A stretch of 64,000 nucleotides of DNA from contig QPGO01000059.1 in NCBI GenBank assembly GCA_008632985.1, positions 124,001-188,000 on the forward strand. The letters are read 5' to 3'. The notes beneath the pieces were generated by a model. It saw only the letters and a program-made list of their open reading frames with translations, was not told the origin of the DNA and made no database searches. Below, in pieces: positions 6,340 to 54,606 of the stretch. The position numbers and the translations under genes are program-made. This DNA is from Psammoneis japonica. Lineage: Eukaryota. Position 1 is the stretch's first letter. Each line of letters opens with the position of its first letter.

Positions 6340-6842
6340 TTCTGGCCCACGGCGCACCTCGATTGTGGCGCCAAGATGGAACATGGGAAAAGGGGGGCGA
6401 TGCCGCCTAAATGAAATCAACCTTTTGGCTGATGTCCTCTGTCTTCAATGCCGCGAAGCAAGACGCTGCAACGCATCGCATCTGTCTTGCCCTCACTGAT
6501 GCCATTGCTGCGTTCTTCTCCTCGCTTCCTTCCTTCTCTCTTGTCACAGCAGCAACGGGGTTGCTTCGCTCCCCCTCTCCCCCCCTTTTCTTCTGTCGGC
6601 ACCCCCCCATTTTTGCAGTCAGTCGGCGGCAGGCAGGCAACGCAACGCGGAGTCTTCTGAGCACTGTGCCGTTTCTCACACAGGCACATCGACTGCTGCA
6701 AGCATCTGCAAAGCATGGTGGAACAAACATCTTACAGAGGGACTGGAGATTTTAGGAAGAGAGGGTAAAAAAATCAAGACAGAGTGACAAAAATGTGGAG
6801 GCCAGAGAAGCTAGAAAACAAAGTGCCGCTCGCGAGTGCGTC

Positions 6843-25185: not shown

Positions 25186-25621
25186 CATCCACGTATTCAC
25201 CAGGCAAAATTGGCAAAAGTCGGGTATGGCAAAAAGTGTGCATTTGGTCAAAATTGATCATTGAGTGCAAATGGTGGTGTCTTTAGGGTCCCTTTAGTGA
25301 GCCGAACACGCACATTTCTCATTTGACCATCATGGGTCCGTCTTATGGGGGGTGTCAAAACGTCGTGCTGTGACGCGTCTTGAAAATTAATTGTTAAATA
25401 ACGTATCCAGCCACCAAGGTTATATAAAATTGAAAATTCACACATTGAAGCACGACATTTTACACCCCCTGTAAGACGACCTGTGATGGTCAGATGAGAA
25501 ATGTGCGTGTTCGGCTCACTAAAGGGACCCTAAAGATGCCACCATTTGCACTCAATAATCGATTTTGACCAAATGCACACTTTTTGCCATGCCCGAGTGT
25601 TGCCTGGTGAATCCGTGGATG
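25186..25621. mobile_element. Hairpin/MITE-like element: ~180-bp inverted arms around an ~80-bp AT-rich spacer
   Basis: 25186-25369 is the reverse complement of 25449-25621 with few mismatches. Confidence 0.9.
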
Positions 25622-28600: not shown

Positions 28601-28701
28601 GGACTTGCCATGGTGTCATTGGTGTGGGTGGATCTGGATGACAATGCCATGGTTGGTGGCATTGACGACAAGCTCTGTGGATTGACCATGCTGGTTGCAT
28701 T

Positions 28702-30560: not shown

Positions 30561-31545
30561 CAGATGAGTCCAAATGTGTCCAACCCATCCTTTCAAAAGG
30601 CAGTTGTTGAGACAGGTGATGATTGGGTGACAATGCAGCCGATGCATCCTTGCGGATCAGAGCAATCTCTGTCGATGGCAACGACGACGTTCCCTTGATG
30701 TGATGGCAGAGCTTCTTTTTGACTTGACGCTGTCGCCTTCCTCTGCGATCAGCACTCTTCCGAACAGCCGACAGGTCCACTCGCCTCATGTTTTCAATGC
30801 CATTGCTGCGGACGTCTGCCAAGGCCTTCTTGTGCAAGGGATGCAGCTTCTTCGGAAGCCGGATCTTTCCACCGCTTTTTGCAGTGATTGTTGATCCTGG
30901 CTTCAAGCTCAACGGTGAGTTTGAAGATTTCATGGTTGTCTTGTTGCATGGAACTGTTGCTGATGATTCGCTTGCCAGCAGCTCCGATTCAATGTCCCCT
31001 TCTGTCTCTTCCATGGTCTCGGTGGCTCCGCTCTCTGCAATGTCCTTTGTCGTTTCCTCCGTTGTTTCCAGAGGTCCGTCTGCTTTAATTTCTTCTGCGG
31101 CTTCATTGGATGCACCATCAGCATCTGGCTCCTCTACAGTGTCAGATCCTGCACTTGATTGACACCCTGAAACAAGAACTTCCATTTCACAATCAGACGG
31201 CTCGATGTCTCCGTCACTCTTCTCAAACTCATCAGCAAGGTTTTCTCCATCATCTGGATTGCCTTTCCCGTCATGGTCAATGACGACACATGCATCACCA
31301 ATGCCACCATCGCTCGTGCCGTTTTCTTTGCTGCCATCCAAGCAAGCCTCGTCGTCCTTGATGCAGTTGGTTTCATCAACAGGTTTCTCACTCTCTTTCT
31401 GCTCCTCTGGCGAAAGCGCTTCAGTTACGGCAGCACCAATGAGATCCGGTTTCGGATCACTGCACTCGTTTTGCTGCTTCTTTGGGTTCTTCAAGTCGGT
31501 GGCAGTTTGTGCGAGAGTGTTCCAGACGGTGCGATCTGTCATCTT

Positions 31546-34500: not shown

Positions 34501-35147
34501 TGCTGCAGTGGCATTTGCCGCTTGACTGCTGAATCTCGTTGAGGATTTGTTCACACAACTCCAGACAGCTCGTGGTGCGAGCTTCCACGACCACGAAATG
34601 CAACTTTGGCACTGTCATGATCTGCAATCGACCTGATGGATGAATTCGCAACCTCTAAAGATGGGTGGTCATTTGGAACCTTGATGAGGACGGGTGTTTT
34701 GACCGGCAGCATCATGATCTCTTCCGCGACCATTCTTCACCATGAAGTGGGGGCTGCTGGGTTGCCACTCCTGTCTTGAGACTCTTGCGTGTCCTTGGTT
34801 TCATTCAACAGATGAGAAGATCTCCTCGGCTTGGTTCTTCCATCTTGCCGTTGCTGTTGATTCCAACGCACGTCAAAATTGTGACGAATCTTTCTCATCA
34901 CAGACGACAGGTTGCTTTTCCCATTGTCTCTCATTTTGCAAAAGGTGTTTGTGAGGGATGTGGCAACAAGAGACACTCCAGTGGCACGAGAAGTCCTGCT
35001 TGACCGCCTTTTCGAGTTCTTCCTTTCCTTCTCACGCTCAGCTGCAGTTGATTCTCTCTTTCGCTTCTGGCGAGCGACTTGCCTTTTGATTTGCTCTTTT
35101 TTAGGCTGGCACTGCTTCTTGTGGCTGCTCTTCTTTGGAGGCATGGT
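31546..35147 (-). pseudogene. Academ-type transposase, fragmented
   Basis: ORFs 34737-35150, 33624-34145, 33581-34087, 33001-33312, 32707-32925 and 31546-32673 with DN / GDLLS / GDLH motifs. Confidence 0.72.
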
Positions 35148-36037
35148 CATCTTGTCAAAGATGAGGGAAAAGTGACTTCAAATAGTGCTTCTCTGTTATT
35201 GGCCGCATTGGCGGCAGCTTGCGAAAAGTTGAAATGGTTTGACGGTGCGTAGAGTTGTCGCGGTGTAGCGGGGTTCTCGGAAATCCCAAAGAGACTGAAA
35301 TATACCTCGAAAATCCGGATATCTATATTACGAGCGTGCAAGCGCCACACAGACAATTCGAACCATTGCATGCAATCAACCAAGCACTACACACCCAACC
35401 AACTGACACGAGAACCCTCCTGCTCAGGGGTGAGCTCTGCCTCTGCTGTAGCCAGCGGATTTGGAGATTTGTCTGAGTGTCTTTGGCGTTTTGACTGATG
35501 CATGGCATACCGGTACATCGGTGTTGAATGTCTGAGCCTGTGTGTTCAATCTGGTCATTTTGGACACGCGAAGAAAAAACAAATGTGGCTGATCCAGAAT
35601 TTCTATGGCATGCTTCAGGTCAAAGCATTGGAGACACAATCATCATCACGTGTGCAGCAAATATCTTCGTTGCTTCCGGCACGCGATTCACAATGTCAGT
35701 TGGCCCGGCCCGAGCAACGGAGCATGTAGACACACTGCCGTGACGATAAATGCAACGAGTCTATATTCCGCATTCATCACACTCTTGGTGCCACATTCTA
35801 TGATTGCCCAATTGCACCAGCGATGCCTGCACAGAGAACTGCGAGTGGACTCGTGAACTGGTGAACGCAAGGTTGCGGTTACAACCCGAGCATTGTTCCT
35901 GCGCTGTTGTGCGGTGGAAGTGATGCCACAACTTGTCTCCTCTGTTATGATGACGCGACTCTAGCACACTCTATAGAGAGATCGGAGAAAACGACAGGGT
36001 GACAAGCAACAGTTCGGGGACTGCATAATGCAGGAAT

Positions 36038-38360
36038 CAACGTCCAGACAGAAGAGACACAGTGTACCCTGATGCGCAACGTCCAGACAGAAGAGACACA
36101 GTGCACCCTGATGCGCATCGCGAGTCCAAACAAAAAGACACAACCCTTTCAACATGCCAGTTTTTTAACAGCTTCCGCTCTATCGTCAATGTCAAATGTG
36201 GCCTTTGGATAGTTTCCTACTCAAAGGCGCCGTTTCGTTTTGTACGGCCGCCGCGCTGCGTTGGGGAGCTCGCGTCGAGCTAGGAGGTGCTTCAAGAAGT
36301 ACAGGACACTATCTCATCGCCACGCAGTCTGCCCCAAAAGTTCAACAGTACCTCGATCGAGTCACTTCATTTTCGTCTAATTCAATGTGCTACCGGTATA
36401 TCTTCTCTTAAAGGGAAACTGAGGCGCAACCAATACGTTGGCAGGCGCATGCGTCTCCGTGTCTCATAGCTGATATGTGCTTGAATCTCTTCTCTGTTCC
36501 AGGCTCTTTGTGACAACCACGATGCCGGCATAGTTCAAACCAGACACAAGAGATAGCTTACCCTGCGCATCATCGCGAGTCCAAATAACAATACATAACG
36601 GTTTCAACAGATAGAACTTCCAACAGTTTCCGCTCTCGTCCACATCGAATTGTGTCCTTCGTTTGTCAACAGGGAGGGAGTTTCCTAAGCAAAGTAGCCG
36701 TTTCGTTATGGACAGCCGCCTGCATTGTCAGGCTCGTCGAGCTGAGAGACGGTTCAAGTACGGGATGCGTTATCTCATCGCCGCACGCGCAGTCTGCCCG
36801 CAGAAAGTTGCGGTCCCACGATTGAGTCTGCAATGTGCTAAATCTTCTCTTCAAGGGAAACTGATGAGCCCCAAGCAATACGTTGGAAGGCGCACATTAT
36901 TTGTGTCTCCGTTTCTCATAGCTTATATGCTTGAATCTCTTCTCTGTTTCAGGCGCTCTTTGTGACAATGCTGCATTGCCGTGTAGTTCCAACTAGACAC
37001 CAGAGATACAGCTTACCGTGCGCACTGCGAGTCCAAACATAAATACGTAGCGGATTCAACATGTAGGGCTTCCAACAGTTTCAGCTCTCGTCCATAATAA
37101 ATTCGTTTGTCAACCGGGGAGAGTTTCCTACTCAAAGGCGACCTTTCGCTATTATGGACAACCGCATGCATTGCAGCAGGCTCGTCGAGTTCAAATGTGG
37201 GTCAAGCACGGGACGCTATCTCATCGCCACGCGCAGTCTGCGCCCAGAAAGTTGCAGTCCCTCGATCGAGTAACTTCATTTTCGTCTGGTGCAATGTGCG
37301 CTAAATCTTCTCTTCAAAAGGAAACTGAGACACAAGCAACACGCGTTGGCAGGCGCATGTTTGTCGCCGTTTCTTCTCATAAAGTTTATGCTTGAATCTC
37401 GTCTCTGTTCCAAGCTCTTTTTGACGACCGCATTGCCACGTACGGAGTAGTTCAAACCAGACACAAGAGATAGCTTACCCTGCGCATCGCCAGCCCAAGC
37501 AATACATAACGGTTTCAACGTATCGAGCTTCCAACAGTTTCCGCTCTCATCAATATCAACTTTGTCCTTCGTTTTTCAACCGCGGAGAGTATCCCAATCA
37601 AAGCGGTGCCGCATTTCGTTATGTACGGCCGCCTGCGTTGGGAGGCTCGTCGAGCTGAGAGGTGCTCCAAGTACGGGACAATATCTCATCGTCACGCGGT
37701 CTGCCCAGAAAGTTGCAGTCCCTCGATCGAGTGGCTTCATTTTAATCTGGTGCAATGTACTTGATCTTCTCTTCAAGGGAAACTGAGCCGCAACCAACAC
37801 GTTGGCAGATAACGTTTGTCTCCATTTCTCGTTGCTAGTGCTCTTTTCTATTTCAAGCTCTTTGTGACAACCACATTCTTGCCGTGTATAGTTCAAACCA
37901 GACACAAGAGGTAGGTTACCCTGCGCATCGCGAGTCCAAACAATAATACATAACGGTTTCAACAAAGAGTTTCCGCAACAGTTTCCGCTCTCGTCCGTAT
38001 TAAATTCGTTTGTCAACGGGGGAGAGTTTTCTACACAAAGGCGCCGTTTCGTTATGATGGACACCATCAGCCGCCTGCATTGGGAGGCTCGTCGAGCTGA
38101 GAGGCGGTTCAAGTATGCGGGACGCTATCTGATCGCCGCACGCGCAGCAGTCTGCCCTCAGAAAGTTGCTGTCCCACGATAGAGTTACTTCATTATTGTC
38201 CGGTTTGCAATGTGCTAAATCTTCTCTTCAAGAGAAACTGATGAGCCGCAAGCAATACGTTGGAACGCGCACGGTATGGTCGCTGTTTCTCATAGCTTCT
38301 GCTTGAATCTCTTCTCTATTCTAGGCTCTTTGTGACGACCACACATTGTCGCGTGCAGTT
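36038..38360. repeat. Tandem array of ~5 diverged units of ~440-470 bp, preceded by a 39-bp duplication
   Basis: Anchor tagttcaaaccagacacaagag at ~36531, 36984, 37448 and 37889; aaagttgcagtccctcgatcgag-like segment recurs in each unit. Confidence 0.9.
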
Positions 38361-38446
38361 CCCACCCTTCAATCGCAAGCTCAACAGCTATAGATACAGG
38401 GTGCTTTGATCACCTTTTGTGAAATGATGACTCCTCTCCTACGTGT

Positions 38447-39273
38447 TTATTCTTCTTCGTTCCATACCTTTCCACAATCTTGACATTGATATTTCATCAT
38501 GACGGTATCTGCTCGATCCTTGTTCCCCCACGTTTCTCCCTTGGTCAACGCCGTGTCTTGTCTTATACCGGAGTTCCCTGCATTGACGACCTTGGTGCTG
38601 TTGCAAGACGAACACGTGACGCCAGCAGCTGTATCGTTTTCGACGGGAGGATACGTCTTGAGCGTTGCGCTTGGGGGTGTGCGTCTAGTGCTAAATTCCA
38701 AATCGACTTGCGAGATGCCTTGCGGCGTTTGTATGGATTGACCTCGTTGCTGTTGGTACTTGCAGCAATTACGGATGCATCCTGCTTTTGTCGTTCCTGC
38801 TGCTCTTGTTGTCGGCGCATTCGTTCGGGGATCGGAACCGTTCTCAAGAATCCTCCACCGGCATCACCCGGTGATTGTTTCTTTTTCGGCAATCCAGCAG
38901 CTCGTTTCGGTTTGCCTCGCAAATCATGTAGAACCGCAAGAGGATCTTTACTCTGCTTTTTATTGGTAAAGGACCGCGCTGCCGTTTCGGATAATTCTTG
39001 CTGCAACTCGATAAATGCCTGTGCAAACAGCGGCTGCACCTCTTCCAGTTGTTCCTGTTGCGTATCATCCATCACTTGCACCTTATCGGGATCCACACGA
39101 ACCGCACGTGTTGTATAATAGTGCAGCCAACAATATGGTTTCTGACTGCTGCTTCGTTTACGATCAATCAAGCTTGATTTCTTTCGAGTCGAAAAGTCGA
39201 CCAGCACCGCTGCCGCTTTCTCTCCACAGAAACTGCAAAGTTCTTGTTGCTTGCGTGAATCGGAACTTTGCAT
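38447..39273 (-). CDS. Protein with N-terminal CxxC…CxxH finger and C-terminal TFIIS-like zinc ribbon (frameshift near 38690)
   Basis: CSFC…CWLH; CSSCNS…KGETWGNKD…YQCQDCGKVWNE. Confidence 0.7.
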
Positions 39274-39463
39274 ATTCTCAATCTACAGTATATAATCCGT
39301 CACCTCGAGCTTCTGATTGCGCTTATTATATTGGAACTGTTACAACAGCGTCACAGAAACGCAGACACCGACGACATGAACGGTTGTGTTGTTGCTGCGC
39401 AGTGGGTCGTCGGGGGGGCTTGGGGAGTCAATCAGTCTCAGTTGTTGTCGCCGTCGCTGCAGA

Positions 39464-40434
39464 GAGAATTACTAATTTCAAATTCCTCACCACGGAGATG
39501 CTCACCAAATGCTCACCACGACTTTTTCGTTAAATATATTACGTCAGTCTCTCCGTCATATGCGAACTGCCACATCACTCTTTCAAACCAAACATAATCC
39601 CCCCCCCATCAAAACCGACCAAAACTGACGGCAACGCCCAGAAAACAGAAAACAACACGCATCGACAACATGGTGGCACACAGAGCATGAAAATGATGGC
39701 CCGTAACGGCGTCAAATTTCAACCGTATGACAATAAAAAGAAGAGCAATCGAACCGTCGTATATTAATTAGTCTGTGAAGTTCATTTCTCTTTTGTCCAG
39801 TGCTGTAATCGTAGACTTATGGAGTTTTTTCAGAAGCTGTCAATTGTCAAGTTTTAGATCCTTTTCTCGGGCCATTTCGACCCCTCAGTCTAAGATCAAA
39901 CTACATAATAATAAGCCGATTAAATCCTCCAGATTTAAGTTAGTCTTTAAGCTTATTGGTGTATCGTGTGGATCTAGTTTAGCTGCCTTATGCATTGAGT
40001 TTGTATGGTGCACGAACAATCCTGTGAATACAACAAGTCTATTTTAGCCATAAGTCCACACCATTTTGCCATTTTCTTCACCTGACATGATCATATGGAC
40101 TTAATATTATCGTATGGTGCTACTTCTATTGTTTTAAATGTGGAAGAAGTTGTGAGAAACGGCCGCAGACGCCATGGCGACTTACACGAAAAACACATCT
40201 CAAGTCATCTCAGTAGATTTCTACATGCGGCTCAGTACGTGACGTCTCAAATCGATCGCCGTTGCTCTACAGTACGCTACAGCGCAGTGGAATTTTCGAC
40301 TTAGCGAAATTTGGGCGTCGATGAGGAAGGGTGTGAAGGGGGTCGGGTGGGGCGGGAAGCATTCGCGCGACTGACGCAAACAGACGTGGTGAGCATTTGG
40401 TGAGCATCTCCGTGGTGAGGAATTAGTAATTCTC
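39464..40434. mobile_element. 971-bp non-autonomous DNA transposon with ~50-bp TIRs and 8-bp TSD GCTGCAGA (Mutator/hAT-like)
   Basis: gctgcaga|gagaattactaat(ttcaaat)tcctcaccacggagatgctcaccaaatgctcaccacg … cgtggtgagcatttggtgagcatctccgtggtgaggaattagtaattctc|gctgcaga. Confidence 0.9.
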
Positions 40435-43400
40435 GCTGCAGAAGCGTGGAAAGCACGTAGAGTGTCGTATTGAGCGAGCGCTTACAGTACACGCTTTCAA
40501 CCGAAGGTTCGACTGATTCCACGAATCGCAAATGAATATCTGAATATCCGTTGGAAATTTTCGTATTGCCCCATGAAATATGTAAAGCCTCATGTCTTAA
40601 TATAATCATAAAATGACCTCAGTCATAATCCAACGCACGTCCGGACGGCGTGTTCTCCCTGCTGAAGCGAGCAAACAAAACCGTTCTGTCGAAGTTGATG
40701 TTGTGCCCCCCAGGAGCAGTGACCTTGACACAACTGACCATTGACCATGAAATGGATCTCTAGACGTCCCAGCACTGGGAATGCATCGTTGCCAAACATG
40801 ACGGACGAAGCAAAAGTCAAATGGAAATGGGATCGATGAAGGAGAAGAGCACGCGGGACACGTTGATTGTTTCTTTGTTGAGCGACTTGATGATGACAAG
40901 TTTTGTGAACTTCCACAGTTGATTGCCAACAAGACTTGGGAGCTTGCAAGGATCTTGAGCAATCCAGATGGTCATGAGATGAAGCACCTGGGACTCTGAT
41001 CATGATTTGTGCATGATGCAATGTCGCACCTCAAGGGAAACTGGATCTCCAGATGTGGTGGCGACGGCCATGTTCTCAGCGAAGATCACCACATGTGGAA
41101 AGAAAACATCATTCTCAGGATGGGCACAAGTGGCACGCAACTGGAGTGGGAGCCCGAGCCTCCCCCGCTTGCGCTGGAGCAGGAGGCGGCCTTCACGAGG
41201 AAGCCATCATCAAGACGGCCTGGAATTTCGGTGGGGTGGGATTTGTTCAGGCTGGGAGGTGACCCATTTGATTTCTTGCTGATGAACCACACTTTGGCAA
41301 TGATTGGTGTTCACCATTGCATGTTCAAATCGAAAACACCATGAGGCTTGATGGATTCCAAAGGCTGAAACACGCATGTGCTGAAGATTCGCGCCAATCC
41401 TGCGCAGCACAGTCGGAACACAAGTGCAAGGATGAAGACAGCAAGCTTCAGGACATTGTGTTTGCCATGGCTGACAAGGGATGCAAGGACCAGTCTGGTG
41501 TTTCTGCCATCACAAAGAGTCTTGTCAATTGGGGTGGGAGTGTTGTTGAAGCCTGCGCATGCCACAAGCGGCAGCTGTGATGGCGCTTCGTGCAGTGGCA
41601 TGTGCTGCAGCTTTCAGACATTCTCATTGGCTTGGGAGGCACTGCGGCAACTCACCAGATGCTTGTGGTCATCACCCTTTGCACGCCAGTGCAGCAACAT
41701 GTGACGCATTGGCAATCAAGCACCAGCTCTCGAAAGGAGTGGACAGTTTGGTCAGGAACAACGCCAGTGAGCGAGACGCCCCTTGATTTGCAAAAATCTG
41801 CAGGCAGACGGCAAAAAGATGAAGACGAAATGCGCCAGTGTTGCTTTTTGCAAACTGACGTGGCAGTGTAAAGAGAAAGTGGGACAGAACTGCAGCTGCA
41901 CAATGCCTGGGGGAAGCCTGGTGGGACAGCTCATGTCCACAGGTGTCTCGTCATGATTCTGCTGGCAACAACCCACACATTTCTTGCACCGGTGGTGATG
42001 CAACATTCAGCAGTTGGATTCATTTTTTTGCCATTGTCAACCCTTGATGAAACTGACACTGTTTGCTGCCCTGGTTGTGTCCCTTCGCTGGAGCTGCCAT
42101 GTTTGATGGAGAGTTGCCAAGGTGCAACAGCTCAACTCTCTCTGATCAACTGCGTTCAGTGCAGAATTTGAGGTTGGCAGCTCAGACATGTGGCCGTCAA
42201 GTGACAACAATTCCTTCTCCACATTGACAGTCTACAAAAACTCACAATCTCCACTTGCTCCACTTGCTTGCACAAACCCTCTCCACTGGTCGGGAACATT
42301 TCAATGCTGTCAATTTTTCTTGGTCCACGTGTGGCCATGCATGTGCATGTCAAAGGAGTGTGTTGATTCTTTGGAGTTCTGCAGGTTCCATTGAAATGAT
42401 GGAGCCAGAGCTTCATTGGGTGCCAACTCCAGGCCTGTGATTCGGTCCACCACCACCGTCAAGAGGACAGACTTGATCACATTTGGACATTCCGCGTGGG
42501 GGTGTGCGCAGTCTTCTTCGTCATCGTTGTCCACCTCAATGTCATCGACCACCACAAAGCCATTGAGCGGATGGTGCTGAACACAGTCTGTCCACTGCTG
42601 ACTGGAAATTGATGGCGCAGCCTTTTGCGTGGCTTCCCAAAAGAAATTGTCACCCACGTGAGTCCGGTCTGTGTCGGCACCACCAAAAAAGTCCCACGTC
42701 AGGGCAGCAACATCGGGGACAACCTCTTTGGCAGAGCACTTGAAATGAACCCCAATCTTCAAATTTCTGCAAGCACACTTGATCCATTCTGTGTCCACCA
42801 TGATTGTGACCTTGTCGCATTTTTCTTTTTGATCAAGAATTTGTTTGACTCGCTCCCCTCCAGCACTTGATCCAGAAGTTCTCCTGGTGTGGGCTGTTCT
42901 TGAGATTGCATGTCTTCCCCCAAAGGCATTTCAATGACATTCTCTGCTTCTAAAGATCCTTTGATTTGCTTGTTTTCTCCTCCAAAGCACAGTCCTTTGA
43001 ATTCTGCTAAAAATTCGCAGGCATCCTCATCCTCACCAGTGTCCTCATTGCCTGCTCCTTCTTGCTTCTTCCTCTTCACCGTTCTTGTCCACTGCAGATT
43101 TGTCGCCATTGCCAGTGTCTTCTTCCTCTGGCCTGCCAATTTGCTTCTCCACGTCTCCCATCAATTCCATGTTTTGAATGGATTGAATCACCTCCAAAAG
43201 GACGCTCAGTCGAGGTGATGAGGATGCCATTTTGACATGCAAAGAGCCTTGACAAGCAACGACCACTGATCTCTCTCTTTGTCTCTGTGAACACCCCATG
43301 AAGTCATGGCTTGTTGTCAGCAGCTGAATCTGGACGATCCATGCAAACGAAGTTAGTGTTCTGGAAGGTTGAAAGAAGCTGGAACAACCATCGCAAAAAA

Positions 43401-44154
43401 CAGATGGAGGACAACAAAAACAAAAATGAAAAAATGAGAAAGAGGAAATCGAGGATCTCCTGATGGGGTGACAGACGCACAGTTCAACTTTTGAGTGCAG
43501 CAAGCGGGCGGTCAGATTGCAGCCAAAGCACTGTGAAGATCGCTGAGGCAAGATCGCAAGCTTCCTGTCGATCGATCACCTCACTTCTCTTCATTCTCTC
43601 ATTCACTTTAACTTCACTCTGCAGACTGCAGGCAGTGCACTTTATTTCACTGTTCTTTTTAACTAAAAAAGATGGCAACTTCCAAAAATCAAAACAACAA
43701 GCATCAAGAAGAGAGATCAAGATGAAGCATGTGTCAAGATGGGAGCCTGGGCAGAAGAGGTGACGGTGGGGTCAGGTTGTTCCAACCAAGTGCAATGCAA
43801 TGAATGTTGTTGTAGAGTGTGAATGTCACAACAAACAAGAGTGCAGCTGACACTTTCAGAGCTTTCTTGCTGTTGGAGGAGAGGATCGGCTGGTGCAGAT
43901 TTTGAGCTGTGGTTGATTGGAGACTTGCAAGAGCTGGGCATCTTGCAGACAGTTGAGTTGCAATGTCAGGGCACTGAAACTGCAACATCACAAAGAAGAG
44001 AGCTGATGATGTTTCTCAGCAGCTGCCATTGGGTCGTTGCAGCTCTGCATCAGTGCCTGTGCAGCTGCCCCTTTTGTGAGCGGGGTTGCCACACAAAGCT
44101 CACCTTGGGTGTGTGCCAGCATGAGGCAGTTGCACCACAATGACAAAGACACTG

Positions 44155-44517
44155 AGGGTTGAAGGGGGATGCTTTGTCATGCCTGTGTTTGGAAGGTTTG
44201 TGCCACCATGGTTTTGAATCTCTTTGCACTTTTGTCCCAGATTGCAGCACACTCTCTGTGCAAAATTCCAAATGATTTTTGGCTCCTTTTGTGCCAGCCT
44301 TTCAGCACAAATTTCAAGTGCAACTTCACACAGGGTTGAAGGGGAATGTTTTGTCATGCCTGCATTCAGAGGGTTTGCGCCACATCATGGTTTTGGATCT
44401 CTTCACACTTTTGTCCCAGATTGCAGTGCACACTCTCTCTGTGCAAAATTCCAAATGGATGTTTGGCTCCTTTTGCGCCAGCCTTTCAGCACAAATTTCA
44501 AGTGCAACTCCACACAT
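44155..44517. repeat. Direct tandem duplication, ~177-bp unit x2
   Basis: agggttgaagggg…ttttgtcccagattgcag…cagcacaaatttcaagtgcaact at 44155 and 44332. Confidence 0.9.
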
Positions 44518-47379
44518 TTGGACAGATTTTCAAGATTTTGATGATCAGATTTTATGGTCCTGCCCTTCTTGCCAACTTTTTCATTCTGCCTGAGTTTTCT
44601 CGAAGCTGGCCTTCAACTCTCGAAGGACATCACCTGGCCCCAAAGTGGGGCCTGGGGCAATGGGATTCCTGCACACAGTGGCATTTTCTCCCAACCACAG
44701 TCTTCCCCCATGTTGGACTTTCTTGGATCTTTTGCCCCTTGACTCTTTCATCCTTTCAAGCACTTTGATTTTCTTGGAGACAGCCACATGATGTTTGGTT
44801 TTCTCCCTGCAGTGTTTGTTTTTGTGGCTTCCACATGGTGTGTGTGGCTGGGCTTGTCTGCTCTTTGAAGCACAGCAACCGCGTTTGCCGTGCATCAAGT
44901 GCCTGTTTTGGTGTCATCACAACTTCCCGTTGAAACTGTGGCATGTGACATGCGCTCTTGTTTCATGACAGGCAGTGTGTCAATGCTTGAATTGTCCCTG
45001 TCGTCCCCTTCTTTTGGGTGCTGGGGAACATGGGTCTGCTGTGGTCAGTGTTGGCATGGGTGGCAGCAAGACAGCAGCACATGCAGCTGAACTCCAATTT
45101 TGTTGTTGGGCTGCTGTGGATGATGTCCACAAACAATTGATGTCATGCCATCATCATTTGTGCTGCAGCACTCTGCCAATGAAGTCTGTCATGTCTTCAT
45201 TGGTGCTGTGTGTCCACTCAAAGGTGAGAGCCAATTTTGATCCAAACTTTTGCCTCTCTCACATGGATGGGGTGATGGGGGGGGGGGGGGGCAGGTTTGT
45301 TCAACCAGCACCTGCAACAAATCATTTTGCTGCCAAAAGGTCATTTTAATGCACACTTGGACAAGGGCAGCTGTTTTGTCTCATTGAGCAACAGCCATTT
45401 GAAAACCATGTTGAAGGCTCCCAAGCTGTTCGTGATGACAACAACTTGGATCTCCTCCCCCACTCACAACATCCTCTCATGTGTGCCTGCATCTGACAAT
45501 GTGGGGCTTTCTTGGTTTGATCCAGCACAATTCAAAATCACTGCAGCAGCAGCCTGGGTCATCAAGGCCTCTTCCAGCTCCAGGTGTCCCACACAGGTGC
45601 GTTTTTGCATTTGACCCAATGAATTTTTCTTCAGCTTCAATTGTTTCCCAAATCAAAGGGTGGGTGCACATGAAACTTTTGTTTGTTTGTGTGCACTCAC
45701 CTCTCCATTTTCAAAACAATCAAAACTGAAAAGTTCATTGTGCCAAACGCAATTTTCATCTGGCATCTTCTTGCGTGATGGATCATGGATCACCTGGAGC
45801 TGGAACAGGCCCCAAGGGCTTGAGTGACACAAATCATCAAGAAGTTTTGCTTGCTGCAAGAACTCCCAGCTTTTGGGTTTTGTTTCACCGGAAGGTTGGT
45901 GGCAGACAGAGTGGATGAACAGAGAGTGCTGTGCATGCTTTTGCAACCAGCAGAGTGCATTTTTCATGATCCTCAACACCCTGGCACTTTCCAGATCTGC
46001 AGCTGTTGTCAATGGCAAATGCAGCCAAAGGAGAGAAATGACAGAAATGATGAGCATGGCATGAAAGCTGCACGCGGTGCAGAATGTTTGGGGTCCCACA
46101 CAACAAACGCTGGTTGTGAGCATGTGACTCAATTTGTTCTGTTGCAAACACTTGTCCATTGCAGCACATTTCTTGACATTGGGGCCAAAAAACATTTTGT
46201 GCTTCAAGTGCAAACTGAGTGCAAAACACAGGCAAGTGCCTCCAGAGGCTGTGGGAATGGGCCGGCTCAACAGAAGATTCTTTCCTTCACCTTGCTTGGC
46301 CATTGTTTGGGAGGGACAAATTGTGGCATGGTGAGTGTCCCCAACACCTGCTGGACATCTGGAAAATGCAGCTGCTCTTGTTTCGAGCTGAAAATTGTTT
46401 GATGAGAAGCCTGTGTTCTTGTCAAGTGCTCCTTCATTGCAAACAAATGGCTTTTTGTGACAAACTGAGTTTGGGAGAAGTGGGGAACCAGACTCAAGGA
46501 AATTTGGTCTCACAGCACATGCACTCTTGACAAGATGATTTTTGTGCATGCTCACAATGCATCATTGCAAATTTCTGTGTGTTCACAGTCAACTGAGTTG
46601 GCTGAGCAGGAAACAACAATGAACGAAACATGGTTCATTTTTGTGCACACACATGCACACTCAAGTCACTCTTGTCAATTGTTGTTGATCATTGGCTGGA
46701 GAGCATGGTGCTGACAGTTTGATTTGTTCATTTGTCAGCTGGCGTGCACTTTGCAACTCTGGACTCTGATGATGTTTGCTTTCTGCCATGGCAATGTTTG
46801 ACATTTGACACGTGCTCTTGTCCCATGCTGTCACTCTGTTGCCTTTGCTCTCTCTGTTCTTTTGGCCACTGTTCCGCTGTCTTTCACAGTCTGTCTCATG
46901 CCTTGGTGTTCTTGACAGTGCTTTCATTTTGCCATGTTCGAATCTTTTGCATGTTTCAAAGAGGGTCAATTTTTGTGGCAGCTTTTCATTGTGACACATG
47001 ATGGCAGAAGACAGCAGAGAAGTTGTCAGTGTTTGGCATGTTTTGTTCAGCAAGCGTGGCAAAATGCTGCTGTTTCTGCTTGCCTGTGTGCAACACTGCA
47101 GCACTTTGTTTCTCATCCTTGGCTGTTTTGCTTTCTTGTCAAATTGTCTGAGTTTCAAGAAATGAAGAAACAGCAAAAGCATCAGCTTGCATCTGACCTT
47201 TTGCCTTTCCTGTGGCTTTTCTTTGTTTGTGTGCAAAGTTTCCTGAGTCTTGTTGGTGCCTTTCTGCAATGCCATCATTGCTTGTGTGTGGCTTGGATGC
47301 ATCCTGTGTTTTTGCATTGTTTTGTGTGACAGCTGCGTGCCCTTCTTGCCACAAAGCCAAGCCAGTCATCAGCCTGGTG

Positions 47380-49590
47380 ACACCATTGCTTTTGTCATTT
47401 TGCAAGTGGCAGCAACCTGATGGGCACCAGTGGTCTTTGATGAACCCCAGGGGACACTTTGCAAGGTTGATCTTGCAGTGTTGTGGCCCCATGTCACATT
47501 GTCCCTGACAGGAGCAGACTTGAATTTCCAAGCTCCTCCTCTGCCAGAGTGAAATGACCCCACAACAGTGCCAGACCCCATGTGAGACTTGCTTTGCAAA
47601 CTTTGGTTGAGCATTGCAAGGTTGATCTTGTGGCATTGTGGCCCCATCATGTCACCTTGTCCCCAACAGCCACAGAGCAAAATTTCCCAACTCCAGAATG
47701 CAAGTGCCCCATGATGGCAACAAGAACCAACCTGACAGCTGCAAGCTGAGGGCACTGACAGTGTCTGGTGGGCTCCAGGTGAGATGTCAAGAACTTTGGC
47801 TTGGAATTGCAAGCTTGATCTTGTGGTGTTGTCACCCCATGTTGCCTTGTCCCTGGCTGGAGCACACTTGAGTTTCCAAACTCCAGAGTGAGAAGATCCC
47901 ATGACAGCACCAACCAACTTGACAACAAAAGCTGATGGCATTGATGGCTTCCAACAGCCCAAGTGATGCAGTTCTCAGAGCATCACCCCTGGGGTCCACC
48001 AAATGCTGCCAGTGTTCTTGGCTTGCTGTTGTCAGGTCAGCTGGCAGAGGAGGAGCTTGGAAACTCTCAAGTCTGTCTCCTGGGACAAGAAAGTGACATG
48101 GGCCAGCACAAGACCACAAGACCAACCTTGCAACAATCAACCACAGCTCTTGAAGTGTTGCCTGAGGTCCCCCAGACACCACCAGTGTCCTCAGCATGCT
48201 GTTGTCAGGTTGGTTGTCACTGTCATGGGTTTTCTTTCACTCTGGAGTTTGGAAATTCAAGTTTGCACCAATCAAAGGCAAGATGACATGGGGCCACAAC
48301 ACCACAAGATCAACCTTGCAATGCTCAACCACAATTCTCAATGTGTTCCCTGGGGTTCATCAGAAACCACCTTTGCCATCAACTGGCTGTTGCCAGGTTG
48401 GTTGGCACCATCATGGGATCCTTTGACTCTGGAGTTGGGAGCTGCAAGAAGTCTGCTGCTCTTGGGGAGTGACAAGATGAGGATGCATGGTGCCACAACA
48501 CCACAACATCTGCCTTTCAATGCCCAGCCACAGCTCTCAAAGTGTTGCCTGGAGAGACCACCAATGCCGCTGGCTTCCTGTTGTTAAGTTGATTGGGTGC
48601 TGTCATGGGGTCCTTTCACTCTGGAATTTGGAAATTCATGTCTGCTCTCCTTGTCAGGGACAAGGCAACATGGGGCCACAATGCTCAAGATCAAGCTTGC
48701 AATGCTCAGTTGCACCTCTCAAAGTCTCACCTGAGGTCCAACAGATGCCGCCAGTGTCCTCAGTTTGCTGTTGATAGATTGGCTGACAATGTCATGGGGT
48801 CATTTCACTCTGGAGATTCGAAACTCAAGTTTGCTCCCATCAGGGGCAAGATGACATGGTGCCACAACAACACAAGATCTGCCTCACAATGCTCAGTGGC
48901 TGTGCAGTTCTCAAAGTGTCCCCAGGGGTTCATCAGAGAACAACATCCTCAGCTCGCTTTTGTCAGGTTGGTTGGCACCATCATGGAGACCTCTGGCTCT
49001 GGAGTCAGGAGTTTCAAGTCTGCTGCTGTTGGGGACAAGACAACATGGGGCCACAATGCCACAAAATCAACCTTGAAATGCTCATCTTGTGGCATTGTGA
49101 CCCCATCATGCCACATTGTCCCCAACAGCTGCAGACTGAAATTTGCCAACTCCTGACTCCACATGATGGCACCAACCAAGAACCTGACAAGAGTGCAAGA
49201 ATCCCACACATGATGGCACCAACCAACCTGACAACTGCAAACTGAGGGCACTGGCAATGTCTGGCAGACCCCAGGTGAGATTTCAAGAACTGTGGCTGAG
49301 TGTTGCAAGGTTGATCTTTTGGCATTGTGATCAAATGGTGTCAACTTGTGCCCAACAGCAGCCAGACTTGAGTTGCCAATCCCAGATTGAAAGGATCCTG
49401 TGATCTGTGATGACACACCAACCAACCTGACAGCAGCAAGCCAAGGGTGTTGGCAGTCTCCAGTGGTCCCTGGGCAACACTCTTCAGAAATTGTGGCTTG
49501 ATGCTGTGGCATTGTGGCTCCATGGACTTGATTTCCCCATTCCAACAAAGCACAAGGACCCCATGATGGCACCAACCAACCCAACATCAC
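47380..49590. repeat. Diverged ~190-bp satellite, ~12 units in three blocks of alternating orientation
   Basis: gggccacaa…ccacaagatcaaccttgcaatgc forward at ~48100, 48290, 48490, 48672, 48860, 49047; reverse at ~47460, 47615, 47810, 49085, 49305, 49500. Confidence 0.85.
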
Positions 49591-50339
49591 AGTTGTTGCA
49601 TGATTGGAACGTGTGCTTCTTGTTGGCCTGGAGAATTAAAGATTTTTTGGCAGCTTGCTTGTGTGGCACAGCAGAATGACAAGACACCAGACACCACACA
49701 GCAGGATGCAATGATGTTGTGCTGGCACAAACAAGGCATGGTGCATGTGCAATGGGACAAGGTGGTGGCTTGTTCAAAGGTTTGATTGCTGGGTGGCAGC
49801 AAGCAAGCAAAACTTCAAAAAGCAACTCATTGGGAATGCCAGAGATGTGGAGTTGTTTTGCAGTGCAAAATGGCTTGAGGAGAATGGAAAATTGCTGGCA
49901 GCACTTTTGAAACAGGTTTCTCTTTGTTGAATGTGCAGGCCACCCTCCATTTTCCCCAATCTAAATTCCAAGCAAGAGCAGATCCATTGTGAGGGCTGGC
50001 CAGGGCCCAAGTCAGAAACATGAAATGTGCTTCATCGGTTGCATGCCGCACCATTTTGGAGGCTTGGCACATCGTCAAGCTTTCTTGCCTTGAGTTTCTG
50101 AGTGAGTCTTCATGGCCAATCTTGCCAACAGTGAAAGCCTCAACATCAAATGAGTTTTCCATTGCCAAAACCTTGGCCGCAGCTGCTGCTCACACAGTCT
50201 CTGGATCCTGGAGCTGGGTGCACAGAGAGAACACTCATGTTTCTCTCTGACGAGCAAATGCTGGGGGCTGGCACTTTGACCAGTGTGTCATCTGAGTGAC
50301 CCTCTGAAATTTTCTGCAAGAGACAAAACCAGTGCATTT

Positions 50340-50896
50340 GACGTGTTCCAGCCGCACGTGAACCAAATCGTGCACATAAACGACATTTGCGCGATTTTTG
50401 CGCGGTCCCTAACTTACGATCGAACTTTCACCACCAAAAGTATAGATTTATACAAATATAAATGTTTTGCAACACTAACAAGACTCGTGTGAGTGTTGCA
50501 ATATCATTGTTATTGTGATATCTATGTTTTTCATTGCGTTAAAAGATTCGTAACACAACGGATGATTTTCGGCGAAAATATTGCCGTTATTTGGATGTTA
50601 CCTAAATATATCTTTCTACGATGCTACATGGTAGGTTTTCTACCTACAAAGAAATCTCAGTATAAATCTACTGACGTACAATCAGTATTGAGACTACTGA
50701 GGAAGTTTATGATACATATCCCATGAGGACTTGAATACCCCACAAAAAACTATTTAAATGTCCATACTCTCAATGCCTATAAAAGCCAATCCGCTTAAGT
50801 ATTTTTTATATGAAAATGCTACATACACTAAAAGATACATAATTTATATTCAAAATCGATTGTCGTTTTGTGCGTCACCTGGGACTGGAACACGTC
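50340..50896. mobile_element. 557-bp AT-rich MITE-like insertion with short TIRs and probable 4-bp TSD ATTT
   Basis: attt|gacgtgttccag…gcacataaacgaca … tgtcgttttgtgc…ctggaacacgtc|attt; abrupt change to TpA-rich composition inside. Confidence 0.75.
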
Positions 50897-52465
50897 ATTT
50901 GTAGAGCAACAAGGAAGAGCCACACAGACACAGTGGGGGCACAACTTTGCATCCACCAGCAGCAATCTGCTGCCACAGCAAAACTGGAGCACAGTGTGCA
51001 AGCACTGTCCAAAACAAAAACAAAAACAAATCACAACCATGTTGGCCCCAATGTCCTGGCACCCCAAAAAGCATCCTTGGCACACTTGCTGTTTCATGAA
51101 AATGACATTGGCTGAATGAAGCAAAGATTGACCCGCACACTGCAGCCTGGGTTGATGTCAGAATTTTTTTGTCAATTTGTGCTGTGATGCAAAGCTGAGT
51201 CAGTTGATGAGCATCTGTGGCAACAGAAAGCATGAATGATGACAGGGATTGAATGACAATGTGGCAGTTGCTGGGGCTGCTTGACATTGTGAGTTGGGGT
51301 CTGGAACATGAGCTCTTGACATTGGGCTGAAAGAAAGGAATCAGGTTTGTGGTTGCATCATTTGTAAAAAGGGGGTTGACTTGATGAGGAGTTCATTTTG
51401 AAAAGAGAGTCTTTTTGTTGTTGTCAGACATGTGATGACAACACAGTGGCTTGTGACAGGGGTGCACCGTTGTTGCGCAAAAACAACAGATGATGGGCGG
51501 CTGAGCTGTGTGGTGCCTGAGATGCAACAAAGAGACAAAAAAAGCAGCAGAAACAAACAAAAAACATGCAATGGTCAATCAAACTAAAGCTCTTCCAAAC
51601 AAACAGACCAACTCTGAACAAGATGCTGTGCCACAAAACAAAACATTGCAAGTTTGTGACTGCTGGAAAAATTGGGTTTCAACCTGAATGACAGTCATGT
51701 TGACAATGCCAGATTTGTGGCTGAAAATGAGCCAGTGTCAAAACATCATTTAGAATCTAAATGACATCAACTGCCTTGGTTGATTTTTGAGAAAATGTCG
51801 CACCTCTGTGGAGAGTGCAGCCACACACACAAAACACTTGTTTTTTTGCTCGTTGACCTTTTTTTAGCACAAAAACACATTGCAGCAGACGGACTGCTCA
51901 TTGCCTCCCATGTCTCTTTTTATGTTGTTCAAAGTTGCAGGTGAGTTGAAAACCAAGCCATTTGCATGCAAACCATGAGAACTCCACCATGGATCAGGAA
52001 AACACCACACTTTTTCGAGTCAATTTGAAAAAGGTCAGAGAGAAGGTGCAGGGCACACTTTTTGGCAATGCCACTGCCGCAAAAAACAGCTGTGTCAACA
52101 TGAGTGCTCTCAATGTTGCTTCACACAGTCCCAGTAAAACAGAACATGGTGCAGTGAACAATGTGTGCGGCAGTTTGAGACGACGCGGAAGACGTCAGGG
52201 CGGGTCAAGGCGAAACAACGCTGTTTTGGGTGGCGCCTGCACTTTAGTTGGCACGACTGCGTAGTGCTCCACGATTCCTCCACCCCAGGAGCGCGCGCCT
52301 CCGTCCACGTGGAGATGATGATGAGACAGCTCACAAAATTCCAAAAATGCGTGGCCTTGGCTCGCGGCCATCTCATTTTTCATCAAACCGCCATTCGATC
52401 GCCTCTCTAGAAGCCTCTTTTTTCCCATTGACGCTTGCCACATCAGCTTCTTATCATATTTCACC

Positions 52466-53245
52466 ATGTATCGGTACTGCTCTCTTGCGATTGTTGTTGC
52501 GTTAGCCTCCATGGCACAGGCATGGGTTGCTCCATCGGTGGGCAGGAGAGTAGCTTATTCATCGAGTTCTTCTCCTGTTGCGTTGAACATGGCCCTAGAC
52601 TACAATGATCCGGTTGTTGCCGAAGAGTTTGCTGAAGTCCAGCCCATGTCGTATGAAGATGTCGAAGAAGAATTGTTGGAGAGTGGCATTCGCGCACCCG
52701 CATCCATGAACGAAATGGAAGTCAAGCTCATGCTTGTGGAAGTTCGTATGCGCAAGTCTGGCAAAATGCCCAATTCGGAAAAGAAGGAAAAGCCCACTTC
52801 GTTTTCGTCCAAATTCGAAGAAGCTCTATGGACGAAACCGGTATTCAAGGAGTTGTTTGACGACCTCAAAGCCAAGGGTGATCACAATGCCCAGAATGTT
52901 GCTTCCGAATATGTGAATGATCCGGATCTCGCTGAAACCCGGTATGGGAAGGATTACAAAGGGCTCATTAGAAAAGTACAGGCTGCTCTCACGGCACCAC
53001 CACCCGTCAAGACACCCACTCTCACATTTTCTGGTTTTCCGGCAAACATGGGAGAAGACGCCTGCCGAATGACACTGGAAGCGGTGGGAACAATTGTTGA
53101 GTTTGAATGCCGAGAGAGTGATGACTTTCCCATTTTGACTGGTAAAGTGACTTTTGAAGACCTGGATGCTGCCAAGAAAGCTGTTGAACAGTACGATGGA
53201 ATGGATATGGGAATGGGAACGGCTTTGGAGTTGGCGTCTGTGTGA
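52466..53245 (+). CDS. Plastid-targeted protein with C-terminal RRM
   Basis: Signal peptide + AQAWVAP (ASAFAP-type) transit motif; LTFSGFP…GKVTFEDLDAAKKAVEQYDG RRM pattern. Confidence 0.88.
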   Translation: MYRYCSLAIVVALASMAQAWVAPSVGRRVAYSSSSSPVALNMALDYNDPVVAEEFAEVQPMSYEDVEEELLESGIRAPASMNEMEVKLMLVEVRMRKSGKMPNSEKKEKPTSFSSKFEEALWTKPVFKELFDDLKAKGDHNAQNVASEYVNDPDLAETRYGKDYKGLIRKVQAALTAPPPVKTPTLTFSGFPANMGEDACRMTLEAVGTIVEFECRESDDFPILTGKVTFEDLDAAKKAVEQYDGMDMGMGTALELASV

Positions 53246-53622
53246 TCGTACTATAAAGAGAAACATTGGAAAAGAGCAAAGTTAGGACAAAAGAAGGAAC
53301 TCGAACGAAAAGGAGAGCTGAGGTACTTGTAGAAATTTCTGAAGTGTAGTAGTAGTAGTGCACTTTAGCAAGCCATTATGTGTCTGCTGTTATACTCGAG
53401 CTTTGTACGAATCGGTCTTCCATCTAGTATGCTGAGTATTGCTCACAATCACAATTGGCAACAACTAACCCCGCTCTCGCGATTTCACCACCAATCTCAA
53501 GTGAAACTTCTACTGAATTCGGGACTCGATTACCTTTATAGGGCATAGGAGTCCTATACTATTTGAAAAGCACGGATTCAATGACCGATTCAAGTTCGCG
53601 TGGTGCACTATGTAGTTTGTAG

Positions 53623-54606
53623 TTACATTGTCTTTTGTATCTTGCGCATGTGATACCCCGATGTATGATGTTCATTGGGCTGCGATGGACCACGCTTCTC
53701 CCACTTTGGCTTTCTACGGTTGGCTCGTCTACGTTCCGAGTTGAGAGGATGCTTGTGCTTGGAATCAATACCTTTGGAACGTCGTTCAGCAGCTTCCTGT
53801 TGTAGTCGTCGCTGCTCTTCTCGTCTCATGCGTTCCTCGGGTGGCAACAAACTCCAATCCTGCGCTTTTCGTTTCTTGGACTTTTTCTTTGAATCCTGCT
53901 TTTCAGAAGGTGCACTGCTATCGTTGCCTTGAGCAGAGTCGTCCTTCTTCTTCTGCTCTTCCTCTTTTTTCTGCCTTGTAAGCGCCAAGGCTTCCTGATG
54001 AACTTGTTCCAATACCTCATCTCCACCTCGCTCCAACAATCTCATGAGTTTACGTCTTTGCTTCGAATTAAGCGTCTCCAAAAGAGCCACGACAGACTCC
54101 TTATTTACTGTGTCTTTGTCATTCGCTGTCCGTTCAGGCTGCTTTGTCGGTTCAGCGGCTTGCTCGTCAACTTGAACACTACCCATACTTTCTGTTGTAT
54201 CATCGTTTTGTCTGATTTCTTCTGGGTCCCTATTATCAACTTTATCATCACTAGCTTCTTCGTCAGCTGCGGTATCGTCCTCTTCCGGAGTTTCGGTCTG
54301 CTCTTGCTGCTCGGCTTCGTCTTTTTCCTCTTCGTTCTCTTCGCTCTTGCCTGAATTTTCTTCTTCTTCTTCTTCGTCGGGTTCTTTCTGTTCAGTTGCA
54401 TTGTCTTCCTTTGCTTTTCTCTCATGATACCGTTTCAGCATACGACGATGCTTGGCATTCAATTTTGATTCGTCAAGCAAAAGCAGTTCTTCCACCGCCT
54501 TGTCACCATCTCGCTTATCGGGTGGCGCTTTCTTTAGAATTTGCCGACTTCTTTTTGCCGTTTTCCAAAAATTTTCATGCTTACTGAGAACTTCAATCAC
54601 ACACAC
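53623..54606 (-). CDS. Highly charged nuclear/nucleolar-type protein (5' exon uncertain)
   Basis: 327-aa ORF with repeated LN(A/S)K.RR motif, acidic centre, basic C-terminus. Confidence 0.7.
   Translation of the reverse strand: MCVIEVLSKHENFWKTAKRSRQILKKAPPDKRDGDKAVEELLLLDESKLNAKHRRMLKRYHERKAKEDNATEQKEPDEEEEEENSGKSEENEEEKDEAEQQEQTETPEEDDTAADEEASDDKVDNRDPEEIRQNDDTTESMGSVQVDEQAAEPTKQPERTANDKDTVNKESVVALLETLNSKQRRKLMRLLERGGDEVLEQVHQEALALTRQKKEEEQKKKDDSAQGNDSSAPSEKQDSKKKSKKRKAQDWSLLPPEERMRREEQRRLQQEAAERRSKGIDSKHKHPLNSERRRANRRKPKWEKRGPSQPNEHHTSGYHMRKIQKTM

Follow-up and report, generated by a model that had tools for sequence, protein, structure and literature searches.

The TpA dinucleotides that survive in a 9.6-kb block of the diatom Psammoneis japonica are probably the remnant of a context-biased hypermutation that has turned nearly every TpA into TpG or CpA. 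The block (positions 40740–50330) lies in the window, the 64,000-nt stretch analysed here (contig QPGO01000059.1, positions 124,001–188,000), and its surviving TpA had been remarked on in an earlier note made by eye. The evidence consists of the direction of change, its restriction to TpA, a ranking of sequence contexts, the additivity of the two strands, the orientation of the products (5′-TAY to TGY) and replication across five depleted blocks. The context bias of the residual TpA is genuine, significant and replicated. The blocks appear to be decayed DNA of foreign or mobile origin within the nuclear genome of a diatom; for a host fatty-acid desaturase open reading frame (ORF), all eight organism-named rows among the 120 relatives listed were diatom genera, at 66–74% identity.

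Context of the surviving TpA

Five TpA-depleted blocks (1–4511, 5041–7681, 25561–35191, 40611–50411, which contains the focal interval 40740–50330, and 50851–52261; together 27.8 kb) stand in for a genome-wide count of NTAN tetramers. Counts are given in the order YTAR/RTAR/YTAY/RTAY (Y, C or T; R, A or G). Ancestral TA contexts were approximated in three ways: by host DNA, with 1,337 TpA (YTAR 16%, RTAR 26%, YTAY 27%, RTAY 31%); by 174 TpA in TA-normal repeat-like inserts of the window (RTAY 28%, YTAR 24%); and by the NTGN and NCAN contexts inside the depleted blocks (RTAY-type 23%).

An exhaustive listing of the focal block gave 17 TpA: 11 YTAR (CTAG 1, CTAA 4, TTAA 5, TTAG 1), 3 RTAR (GTAA, GTAG and ATAG, one each), 3 YTAY (CTAC 1, TTAT 2) and no RTAY. 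The by-eye tally of about 17 (about 11 YTAR, about 6 YTAY or RTAR, no RTAY) was thus accurate. The nine 1-kb windows from 41001 to 50000 hold 0–7 TpA each, compared with 33–54 in most host kilobases. Across the kilobase windows of the focal block the observed/expected ratio (O/E) of TG and CA is 1.5–1.96, and segment 40611–50411 has a TA O/E of 0.03 and a CG O/E of 0.25. Chance does not account for the missing RTAY. Against host contexts, P(RTAY = 0 | n = 17) is 0.002 and P(YTAR ≥ 11) is 1 × 10⁻⁵; against the TA-normal inserts, the values are 0.004 and 4.5 × 10⁻⁴; and against the NTGN and NCAN contexts, P(RTAY = 0) is about 0.015, as computed from context frequencies. With 0 of 17 in the focal block under all three nulls (P = 0.002–0.015) and 2 of 82 in the other four blocks, the elimination of RTAY put forward in the earlier note is upheld.

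The depleted blocks, none of which has an assigned strand, are as follows.

1–4511: TpA-depleted block running off the window start; 10 TA, TA O/E 0.03, CG O/E 0.37; classes 3/2/5/0
5041–7681: TpA-depleted block continuing 1–4511 past a young insertion; 16 TA, O/E 0.10; classes 8/4/4/0
25561–35191: TpA-depleted block with a former helicase gene; 47 TA, O/E 0.08, CG O/E 0.69; classes 19/12/14/2
40740–50330: focal TpA-depleted block, residual TpA biased to YTAR; 17 TA; classes 11/3/3/0
50851–52261: TpA-depleted block continuing the focal block past a miniature inverted-repeat transposable element (MITE); 9 TA, O/E 0.09; classes 5/3/1/0

The four non-focal blocks alone held 35/21/24/2 of 82 TA (P(RTAY ≤ 2) = 7 × 10⁻¹¹). 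RTAY was absent from four of the five blocks and made up 2 of the 47 TA in the fifth (25561–35191). Pooled over all five, the counts were 47/24/27/2 of 100 TA, or 46/24/27/2 of 99 when intervals were handled with a one-base difference, and the +1 context of these 99–100 residual TA differed strongly from that of the 1,337 host TA (chi2 = 72, p = 1.6 × 10⁻¹⁵). Block edges are sharp, falling within ~100–150 bp. The last block stops ~60 bp short of a host ORF (52325–53245), which has a weak, sub-threshold match to RRM_1 (E = 7.8 × 10⁻⁴, 19.7 bits, cut-off 20.7).

Relative to host density, survival was highest for TTAA (0.30), CTAA/TTAG (0.29) and CTAG (0.17), followed by CTAC/GTAG (0.13), GTAA/TTAC (0.13), ATAA/TTAT (0.05) and ATAG/CTAT (0.03), and lowest for GTAC (0.012), ATAC/GTAT (0.006) and ATAT (0). 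To describe this ranking, we fitted a Poisson model in which TpA survival equals exp(−(h(+1 base, plus-strand A) + h(+1 base, minus-strand A))), with ancestral counts taken from host densities. The fitted +1 hazards were 2.76 for T, 1.57 for C, 0.74 for G and 0.54 for A (~5:3:1.4:1). Depletion is therefore not uniform across NTAN classes after composition correction: survival runs from 0 (ATAT) to 0.30 (TTAA), and the +1 hazard model beats a uniform hazard (likelihood-ratio test (LRT) chi2 = 93, p = 4 × 10⁻²⁰). The additive two-strand model is compatible with all 16 NTAN counts (deviance 17.2, 12 degrees of freedom, p = 0.14). The earlier note's logic of two hits in RTAY, one in RTAR or YTAY and none in YTAR was borne out in form, but TAR is still hit, only slowly, and TAT is hit faster than TAC. 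In the same way, YTAR is the class that survives best, as that note had it, but at only 17–30% of host density it is not hit-free.

The tally had overlooked a second, equally strong term, namely that A at +2 is protective. On residual strands A stood at +2 in 113 of 198 cases (57%), against 732 of 2,672 (27%) in the host, and its share exceeded that of the host in every block (12/20, 14/32, 53/94, 21/34 and 13/18). Adding a +2 term improved the model (LRT chi2 = 55.6, p = 5 × 10⁻¹²), the hazard being ~1.0–1.2 greater with C, G or T at +2. The top survivors were TAAA (0.31) and TAGA (0.29), and the lowest were TATA (0), TATG, TATC and TACT (~0.02 each) and TACC (~0.03). A position scan beyond +2 gave no clear effect (p ≥ 0.07). 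The data support a sharpened motif in which T-A-Y-B (B, any base but A) is fast and T-A-R-A slow.

Dinucleotide composition shows how narrow the target is. TA O/E was 0.05 in the blocks (0.03–0.10 per block) versus 0.58 in the rest of the window, and CG O/E was 0.46 (0.25–0.69 per block) versus 1.02. TG and CA were the sole dinucleotides to increase (1.66 and 1.68 in the blocks versus 1.14 and 1.21 in the host), and the remaining 12 were nearly constant, with shifts of AA, AT, TT, GA and CT within 0.1 (AT 0.86 versus 0.92). Besides CG, TA alone is depleted; the target is thus restricted to TpA, with T preceding the target A. G+C content is 48.7% in the blocks and 47.9% in the host, the decays of TpA and CpG offsetting each other.

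These figures bear on whether targeted error-prone repair synthesis, by a Pol-eta-like WA mutator (W, A or T) placing G opposite T, could have produced the blocks. A to G at 5′-T-A is part of the Pol-eta WA spectrum, so the change itself would fit, but the WA motif includes AA. AA/TT is undepleted (O/E 1.24 in the blocks versus 1.14 in the host), in line with the earlier note's argument that abundant AA speaks against errors of this type, and the ~95% depletion of TA is essentially transition-only to TG and CA, with no other dinucleotide raised. We regard such a mutator as very unlikely.

CpG loss is a separate, context-blind process. It is uneven among blocks (O/E 0.02–0.8 per kb), whereas TpA loss is near complete everywhere, and no neighbour preference was seen for CpG loss in the blocks (5′ base p = 0.17), including no TCG bias of the kind expected from a deaminase side activity. 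It probably reflects deamination of 5-methylcytosine in silenced DNA. The two decays also allow a judgement on an artefact in which modified heterochromatic bases were miscalled, TA and CG alike being read as TG or CA. For part of this comparison we used sequencing run X1, one sample whose contigs were compared with the window; no library type is recorded for it, and it is possibly the assembly's own source, which leaves room for a miscall. X1 contigs match 40490–43345 with 0 differences at a word depth of 30–32, a weak argument given that possible shared origin. The graded loss of CpG (O/E 0.25–0.69) beside the near-complete loss of TA is what two real processes of unlike speed would leave, a TA-normal MITE sits inside depleted DNA, and Illumina sequencing has yielded genuine de novo TpA mutations in the chlorarachniophyte Bigelowiella natans (Mettrop et al., bioRxiv 10.64898/2026.01.13.699255). 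We give a miscalling artefact almost no credence.

Direction of change and orientation of the products

Two former genes within the blocks retain enough of their reading frames for codon-level comparison with intact homologs.

28702–32706, minus strand: former gene for a RecQ-like SF2 helicase; 1,335-codon frame, with 2 in-frame TGA as its only breaks
3241–4536, plus strand: former gene of a family without assignment; 432 codons, Tyr 0%, Cys 6.9%, His 4.9%

The last 593 codons of the RecQ-like frame have homologs at 59% (P0001), 55% (P0002, named RecQ in its source) and 32% (P0003) identity, and its Helicase_C match falls under the cut-off (E = 4.6 × 10⁻⁴). The homologs of the other frame, P0005 and P0006 (43% and 41% identity), are annotated ‘hypothetical protein’ and contain 2.5–3.9% Tyr. 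In both former genes, Tyr of the homologs is replaced by Cys (TGY) or His (CAY): at 12 strict homolog-Tyr positions the RecQ-like frame has Cys 8 times and His 4 times, and at such positions the 3241–4536 frame has Cys 5, His 3, Phe 4 and Arg 1. Changes of GTA to GCA (V to A) and of ATA to ACA or ATG (I to T or M) were also found, V to A being the commonest substitution in the RecQ-like frame. Given Tyr in the homologs and Cys or His in the window, the direction is from TA to TG or CA, and the changes are almost exclusively A>G or T>C. The exceptions are Tyr positions that became Phe (at strict positions, 4 in gene 3241–4536 and 1 in the RecQ-like gene, and at non-strict positions 1 in the latter). 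Loss of every Tyr would leave a protein unable to function, which marks these frames as dead copies and not parts of a foreign genome with native TA avoidance.

The survivors alone are mirror-symmetric, as a preference for Y 3′ of the A cannot be told from one for R at −2, and product orientation is therefore needed to choose between the two. If the target is TAY, YTAY should become YTGY and RTAR should become RCAR; if it is RTA, read through R at −2, the opposite products are predicted. Where the closest homologs agree, YTAY Tyr sites gave TG 8 times and CA once, and RTAR Ile sites gave CA twice and TG once, while two-hit RTAY sites were evenly divided (TG 7, CA 7). X1 variant contigs of a TA-normal repeated element beside the focal block (39457–40626) added four changes at one-hit TpA (GTAA to GCAA, GTAG to GCAG and TTAT to TTGT twice), all four consistent with TAY. 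Pooled, 14 of 16 one-hit events fit TAY to TGY or, equivalently, RTA to RCA (binomial p = 0.004). With the additive model fitting all 16 NTAN classes and the products TAY-oriented in 14 of 16 cases, the per-strand 5′-TAY-3′ target inferred earlier, acting independently on the two strands, is supported.

Both DNA strands were changed inside one gene copy, as Cys and His occur in the same frame, and TG and CA do not cluster within the blocks (z of −0.56 to +1.18 in a runs test). This absence of clustering fits many small independent rounds and not a few strand-coordinated sweeps.

Residual TpA would have another origin if the hypermutation lacked flank preference and the TpA seen today had been newly made by C to T or G to A at CA and TG. 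Some residual TA are indeed without provable ancestry, the third-codon T of T|ACA being silent. However, CA and TG contexts are near-uniform in the blocks, and with their RTAY-type share of 23% about 23 RTAY per 100 would be expected, compared with the 2 seen (P(RTAY ≤ 2 | 100) = 2 × 10⁻⁹). Of ~15 residual TA in alignable coding sequence, 11 lie in codons for the homologs' residue, and the 14 of 16 product orientations, which are independent of the survivors, also speak against it. We put very little weight on such an origin; from the aligned codons, residual TpA would most simply be ancestral survivors.

Taken together, we propose a near-saturating, locus-confined hypermutation of 5′-TA-3′ to TG or CA in silenced foreign or mobile DNA. 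It would change A:T to G:C on either strand, each independently of the other, at a rate set by what follows the target A on its 3′ side (+1 T > C > G ≈ A, and ~e-fold slower when +2 is A). RTAY, well targeted on each strand, would then be wiped out, YTAY and RTAR would offer one good target each, and YTAR, above all T-A-R-A, would present two poor targets and linger. The agent may be a DNA-acting enzyme, most likely an adenine deaminase producing inosine that is read as G, and it may defend the genome by acting on silenced invaders, as has been proposed for B. natans. That the context ranking points to an enzyme, as the earlier note held, is a reasonable inference.

Several observations weigh against this proposal. 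The hazard values hinge on the ancestral proxy chosen, although the ranking does not. The orientation sample comprises only 16 events, and for Tyr positions alone the contrast (8:1 versus 5:6) stands at Fisher p = 0.07. Bulk composition is equivocal: (YTGY+RCAR)/(YCAY+RTGR) reaches 1.32 for the blocks, against 1.15 for the host, where chunks range over 0.84–1.59, and +1 shifts of TG within the blocks are likewise small. TG/CA dimorphism in ~15 copies of a 185-nt repeat in the focal block gave no signal in 7 usable columns, which are confounded by ancestral CpG. Amphioxus ADAT2 acting on DNA prefers GAA at adenine and TCG at cytosine (PMC10354150), and both preferences are unseen in the blocks (CpG TCG bias p = 0.17). 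Finally, A to G at TAY and T to C at RTA on the opposite strand leave an identical sequence footprint.

This last point leads to a thymine chemistry in which the T of 5′-RTA-3′ is modified and mispairs with G to give T to C; one example would be a TET/JBP-type dioxygenase that oxidizes it to 5-hydroxymethyl- or 5-formyl-uracil. The data are strand-symmetric, RTA to RCA being the reverse complement of TAY to TGY, so all of the sequence evidence applies to it equally. 5-Formyluracil mispairs with G, and in dinoflagellates 5-hydroxymethyluracil is enriched at TpA. On the other side, the window sequence is silent on base modification, we know of no thymine-modifying system in diatoms, and the lone published proposal for a similar phenomenon is adenine deamination (10.64898/2026.01.13.699255). 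On balance, thymine modification seems unlikely to us, and we continue with deamination of adenine as the preferred reading.

Known systems and wider meaning

The closest counterpart comes from mutation-accumulation lines of B. natans, in which 231 of 302 new mutations fell in an integrated nucleocytoplasmic large DNA virus (NCLDV) and an integrated virophage; 230 of these 231 were GC-biased, all of them A>G or T>C at TpA, with none at ApA (10.64898/2026.01.13.699255). The same study describes 124 TpA-poor, CpA+TpG-rich clusters in the B. natans genome, enriched in transposable element and viral domains and in unannotated ORFs, reports a de novo rate in culture of ~10⁻⁷ to 10⁻⁶ per site per generation, and proposes an ADAT2-like editor. 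As there, the changes in P. japonica are almost exclusively A>G or T>C and restricted to TpA, giving TpG or CpA; the blocks that carry them are probably foreign and lie next to normal host sequence. The hosts differ, Bigelowiella being a rhizarian and the diatom a stramenopile (Bigelowiella as the source of the window was rejected, since the named relatives of the host desaturase are all diatoms), and TA O/E in the blocks is 0.03–0.10, against a Rho of 0.45 in the NCLDV region. The main text of the preprint reports no +1/+2 flanking preference, and its supplementary mutation list may bear on the point. TpA hypermutation of foreign DNA has thus been described once already, in this 2026 preprint, and our literature search found no report of it in a diatom, most subscription journals lying outside its coverage. 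As far as these searches reach, neither a diatom host nor the extended motif has been reported before.

Fungal repeat-induced point mutation (RIP) also inactivates invading or repeated DNA permanently, by dinucleotide-specific transitions and with sharp block boundaries. However, it changes C to T chiefly at CpA and creates TpA, whereas here TpA is destroyed and CpA and TpG are gained. A further difference is that repetition is seemingly not the trigger here, as a MITE at ~300-fold depth is untouched.

With TadA and ADAT enzymes the proposed agent would share A to I chemistry and a 5′ U or T before the target A. The likeness to a TadA-type U/T-A-C context suggested in the earlier note is not supported beyond that. 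T at +1 (2.76) beats C (1.57), so that the order is TAT > TAC, and G at +2 is without advantage: TACG, corresponding to the core UACG of TadA mRNA sites (extended YUACGAA; PMC11472039), survives better (0.079) than TACC (0.027) or TACT (0.019).

ADAR acting on double-stranded RNA prefers the triplet UAG, with G favoured 3′. Like the changes described here, it yields A to G with a favoured 5′ U or T, the 5′ U being given for ADAR as cited in the preprint (10.64898/2026.01.13.699255). We considered ADAR editing followed by copying into DNA and rejected it: both strands are changed in one frame, and TAG is among the slowest contexts. Unlike such retro-copying, the blocks yielded no reverse transcriptase in Pfam scans of 20 + 81 ORFs.

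The same near-saturated footprint in a diatom suggests that the system is widespread in major marine primary producers, where it would shape how diatom genomes tame transposons and integrated viruses. We tentatively extend this to the idea that diatoms and chlorarachniophytes share a natural DNA editor, either an adenine deaminase or a thymine modifier, which acts on silenced invaders at the motif T-A-Y-B and only poorly at T-A-R-A; as a means of genome defence in the clade of stramenopiles, alveolates and rhizarians, it would be a mirror of RIP, with opposite chemistry, though we rate this broader view as less likely than not. The +1/+2 preference and the product orientation form a quantitative fingerprint that can be compared with de novo Bigelowiella events, used to detect blocks in other genomes and matched to candidate deaminases in vitro. 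A natural enzyme making A:T to G:C changes in DNA, if true, would be of interest for base editing.

Content of the blocks, younger insertions and host neighbours

Beyond the two dead genes, which have no host-like function, and terminal inverted repeats, the blocks contain little that can be recognized. None of the 81 stop-to-stop ORFs of at least 105 amino acids over the five blocks matched a Pfam family at the curated cut-off. In the focal block, neither this Pfam scan nor a search with its 302-aa ORF, which had 0 matches among 1.84 billion representatives, revealed a recognizable gene. Among 197 pattern matches in IMG/VR, 0 relatives were confirmed, and JGI metagenomes held 4 related loci at merely 26–37% identity, too distant for codon-level comparison. 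Two inverted repeats lie at the block that carries the RecQ-like gene. One has 41-nt arms (88%) at 27888–27928 and 35231–35271, the right arm coinciding with the point where the block ends on that side; the two arms may mark the ends of a 7.4-kb element that includes the gene. The other, of 127 nt (25212–25604, 92% complementary, 139 nt between arms), is TA-normal and lies at the left edge of the block.

Repeats and insertions in or next to the blocks are listed below; none has an assigned strand.

47407–49667: ~185-nt unit occurring ~15 times within the focal block, as copies or fragments, in three arrays and alternating orientation (nhmmer iteration, alignment); X1 depth 285–1,689
44155–44516: 184-nt unit present twice in tandem within the focal block (88% matches in Tandem Repeats Finder)
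50340–50896: young MITE-like insertion splitting a depleted block, TA- and CpG-normal; 557 bp, 12-nt terminal inverted repeat (50340–50351 and 50885–50896)
4511–5040: TA-normal insertion between blocks 1–4511 and 5041–7681; 28-nt perfect inverted repeat (4510–4537 and 4992–5019), 36 TA in 529 bp
39457–40626: TA-normal repeated element adjoining the focal block; 71-nt inverted repeat (39457–39527 and 40378–40441), X1 depth ~350

The MITE-like insertion is flanked on both sides by ATTT and holds ~50 TpA. Loose ends of X1 contigs at 50339/50340 and 50896 coincide with its ends, and X1 word depth inside it is ~18,550, compared with ~60 in host flanks (~300-fold). As an element of such depth is untouched inside a depleted block, high copy number by itself does not attract the mutation; the TA-normal insertions are either younger than the mutation or not targeted. 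In the element at 39457–40626, 8 TpA sites (positions 39806–40113) are changed by T>C or A>G in X1 variant contigs. In the insertion at 4512–5040, RTAY accounts for 4 of 36 TpA (11%), versus 28–31% elsewhere, which is either an early trace of context-biased loss or chance.

X1 word depth was ~31–43 in the left part of the focal block (40670–43339), compared with 53–66 in the single-copy host flanks 38000–39000 and 52400–54000. Other X1 contigs (depth ~38–42) showed paired CA/TG swaps at 45835/6, 45874/5 and 46216/7, which could represent two haplotypes independently mutated at the same TpA, or paralogs.

Among host features, the plus-strand ORF 10400–11518 matches the nickel-insertion protein LarC (PF01969, E = 2.6 × 10⁻⁶⁴) and carries a His-Ser/His-Gly repeat; the LarC family is uncommon among eukaryotes. 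Because its composition (0.3% Tyr, 8.6% His) resembles that of the former genes, the ORF was considered as a hypermutated gene, and this was rejected in favour of a natural His-rich repeat. At 36083–38343, five tandem ~455-bp units, 72–75% identical, are TA-normal, CpG-rich and host-like and contain minus-strand ORFs; they may reflect tandem duplication of a gene or an array of domains.

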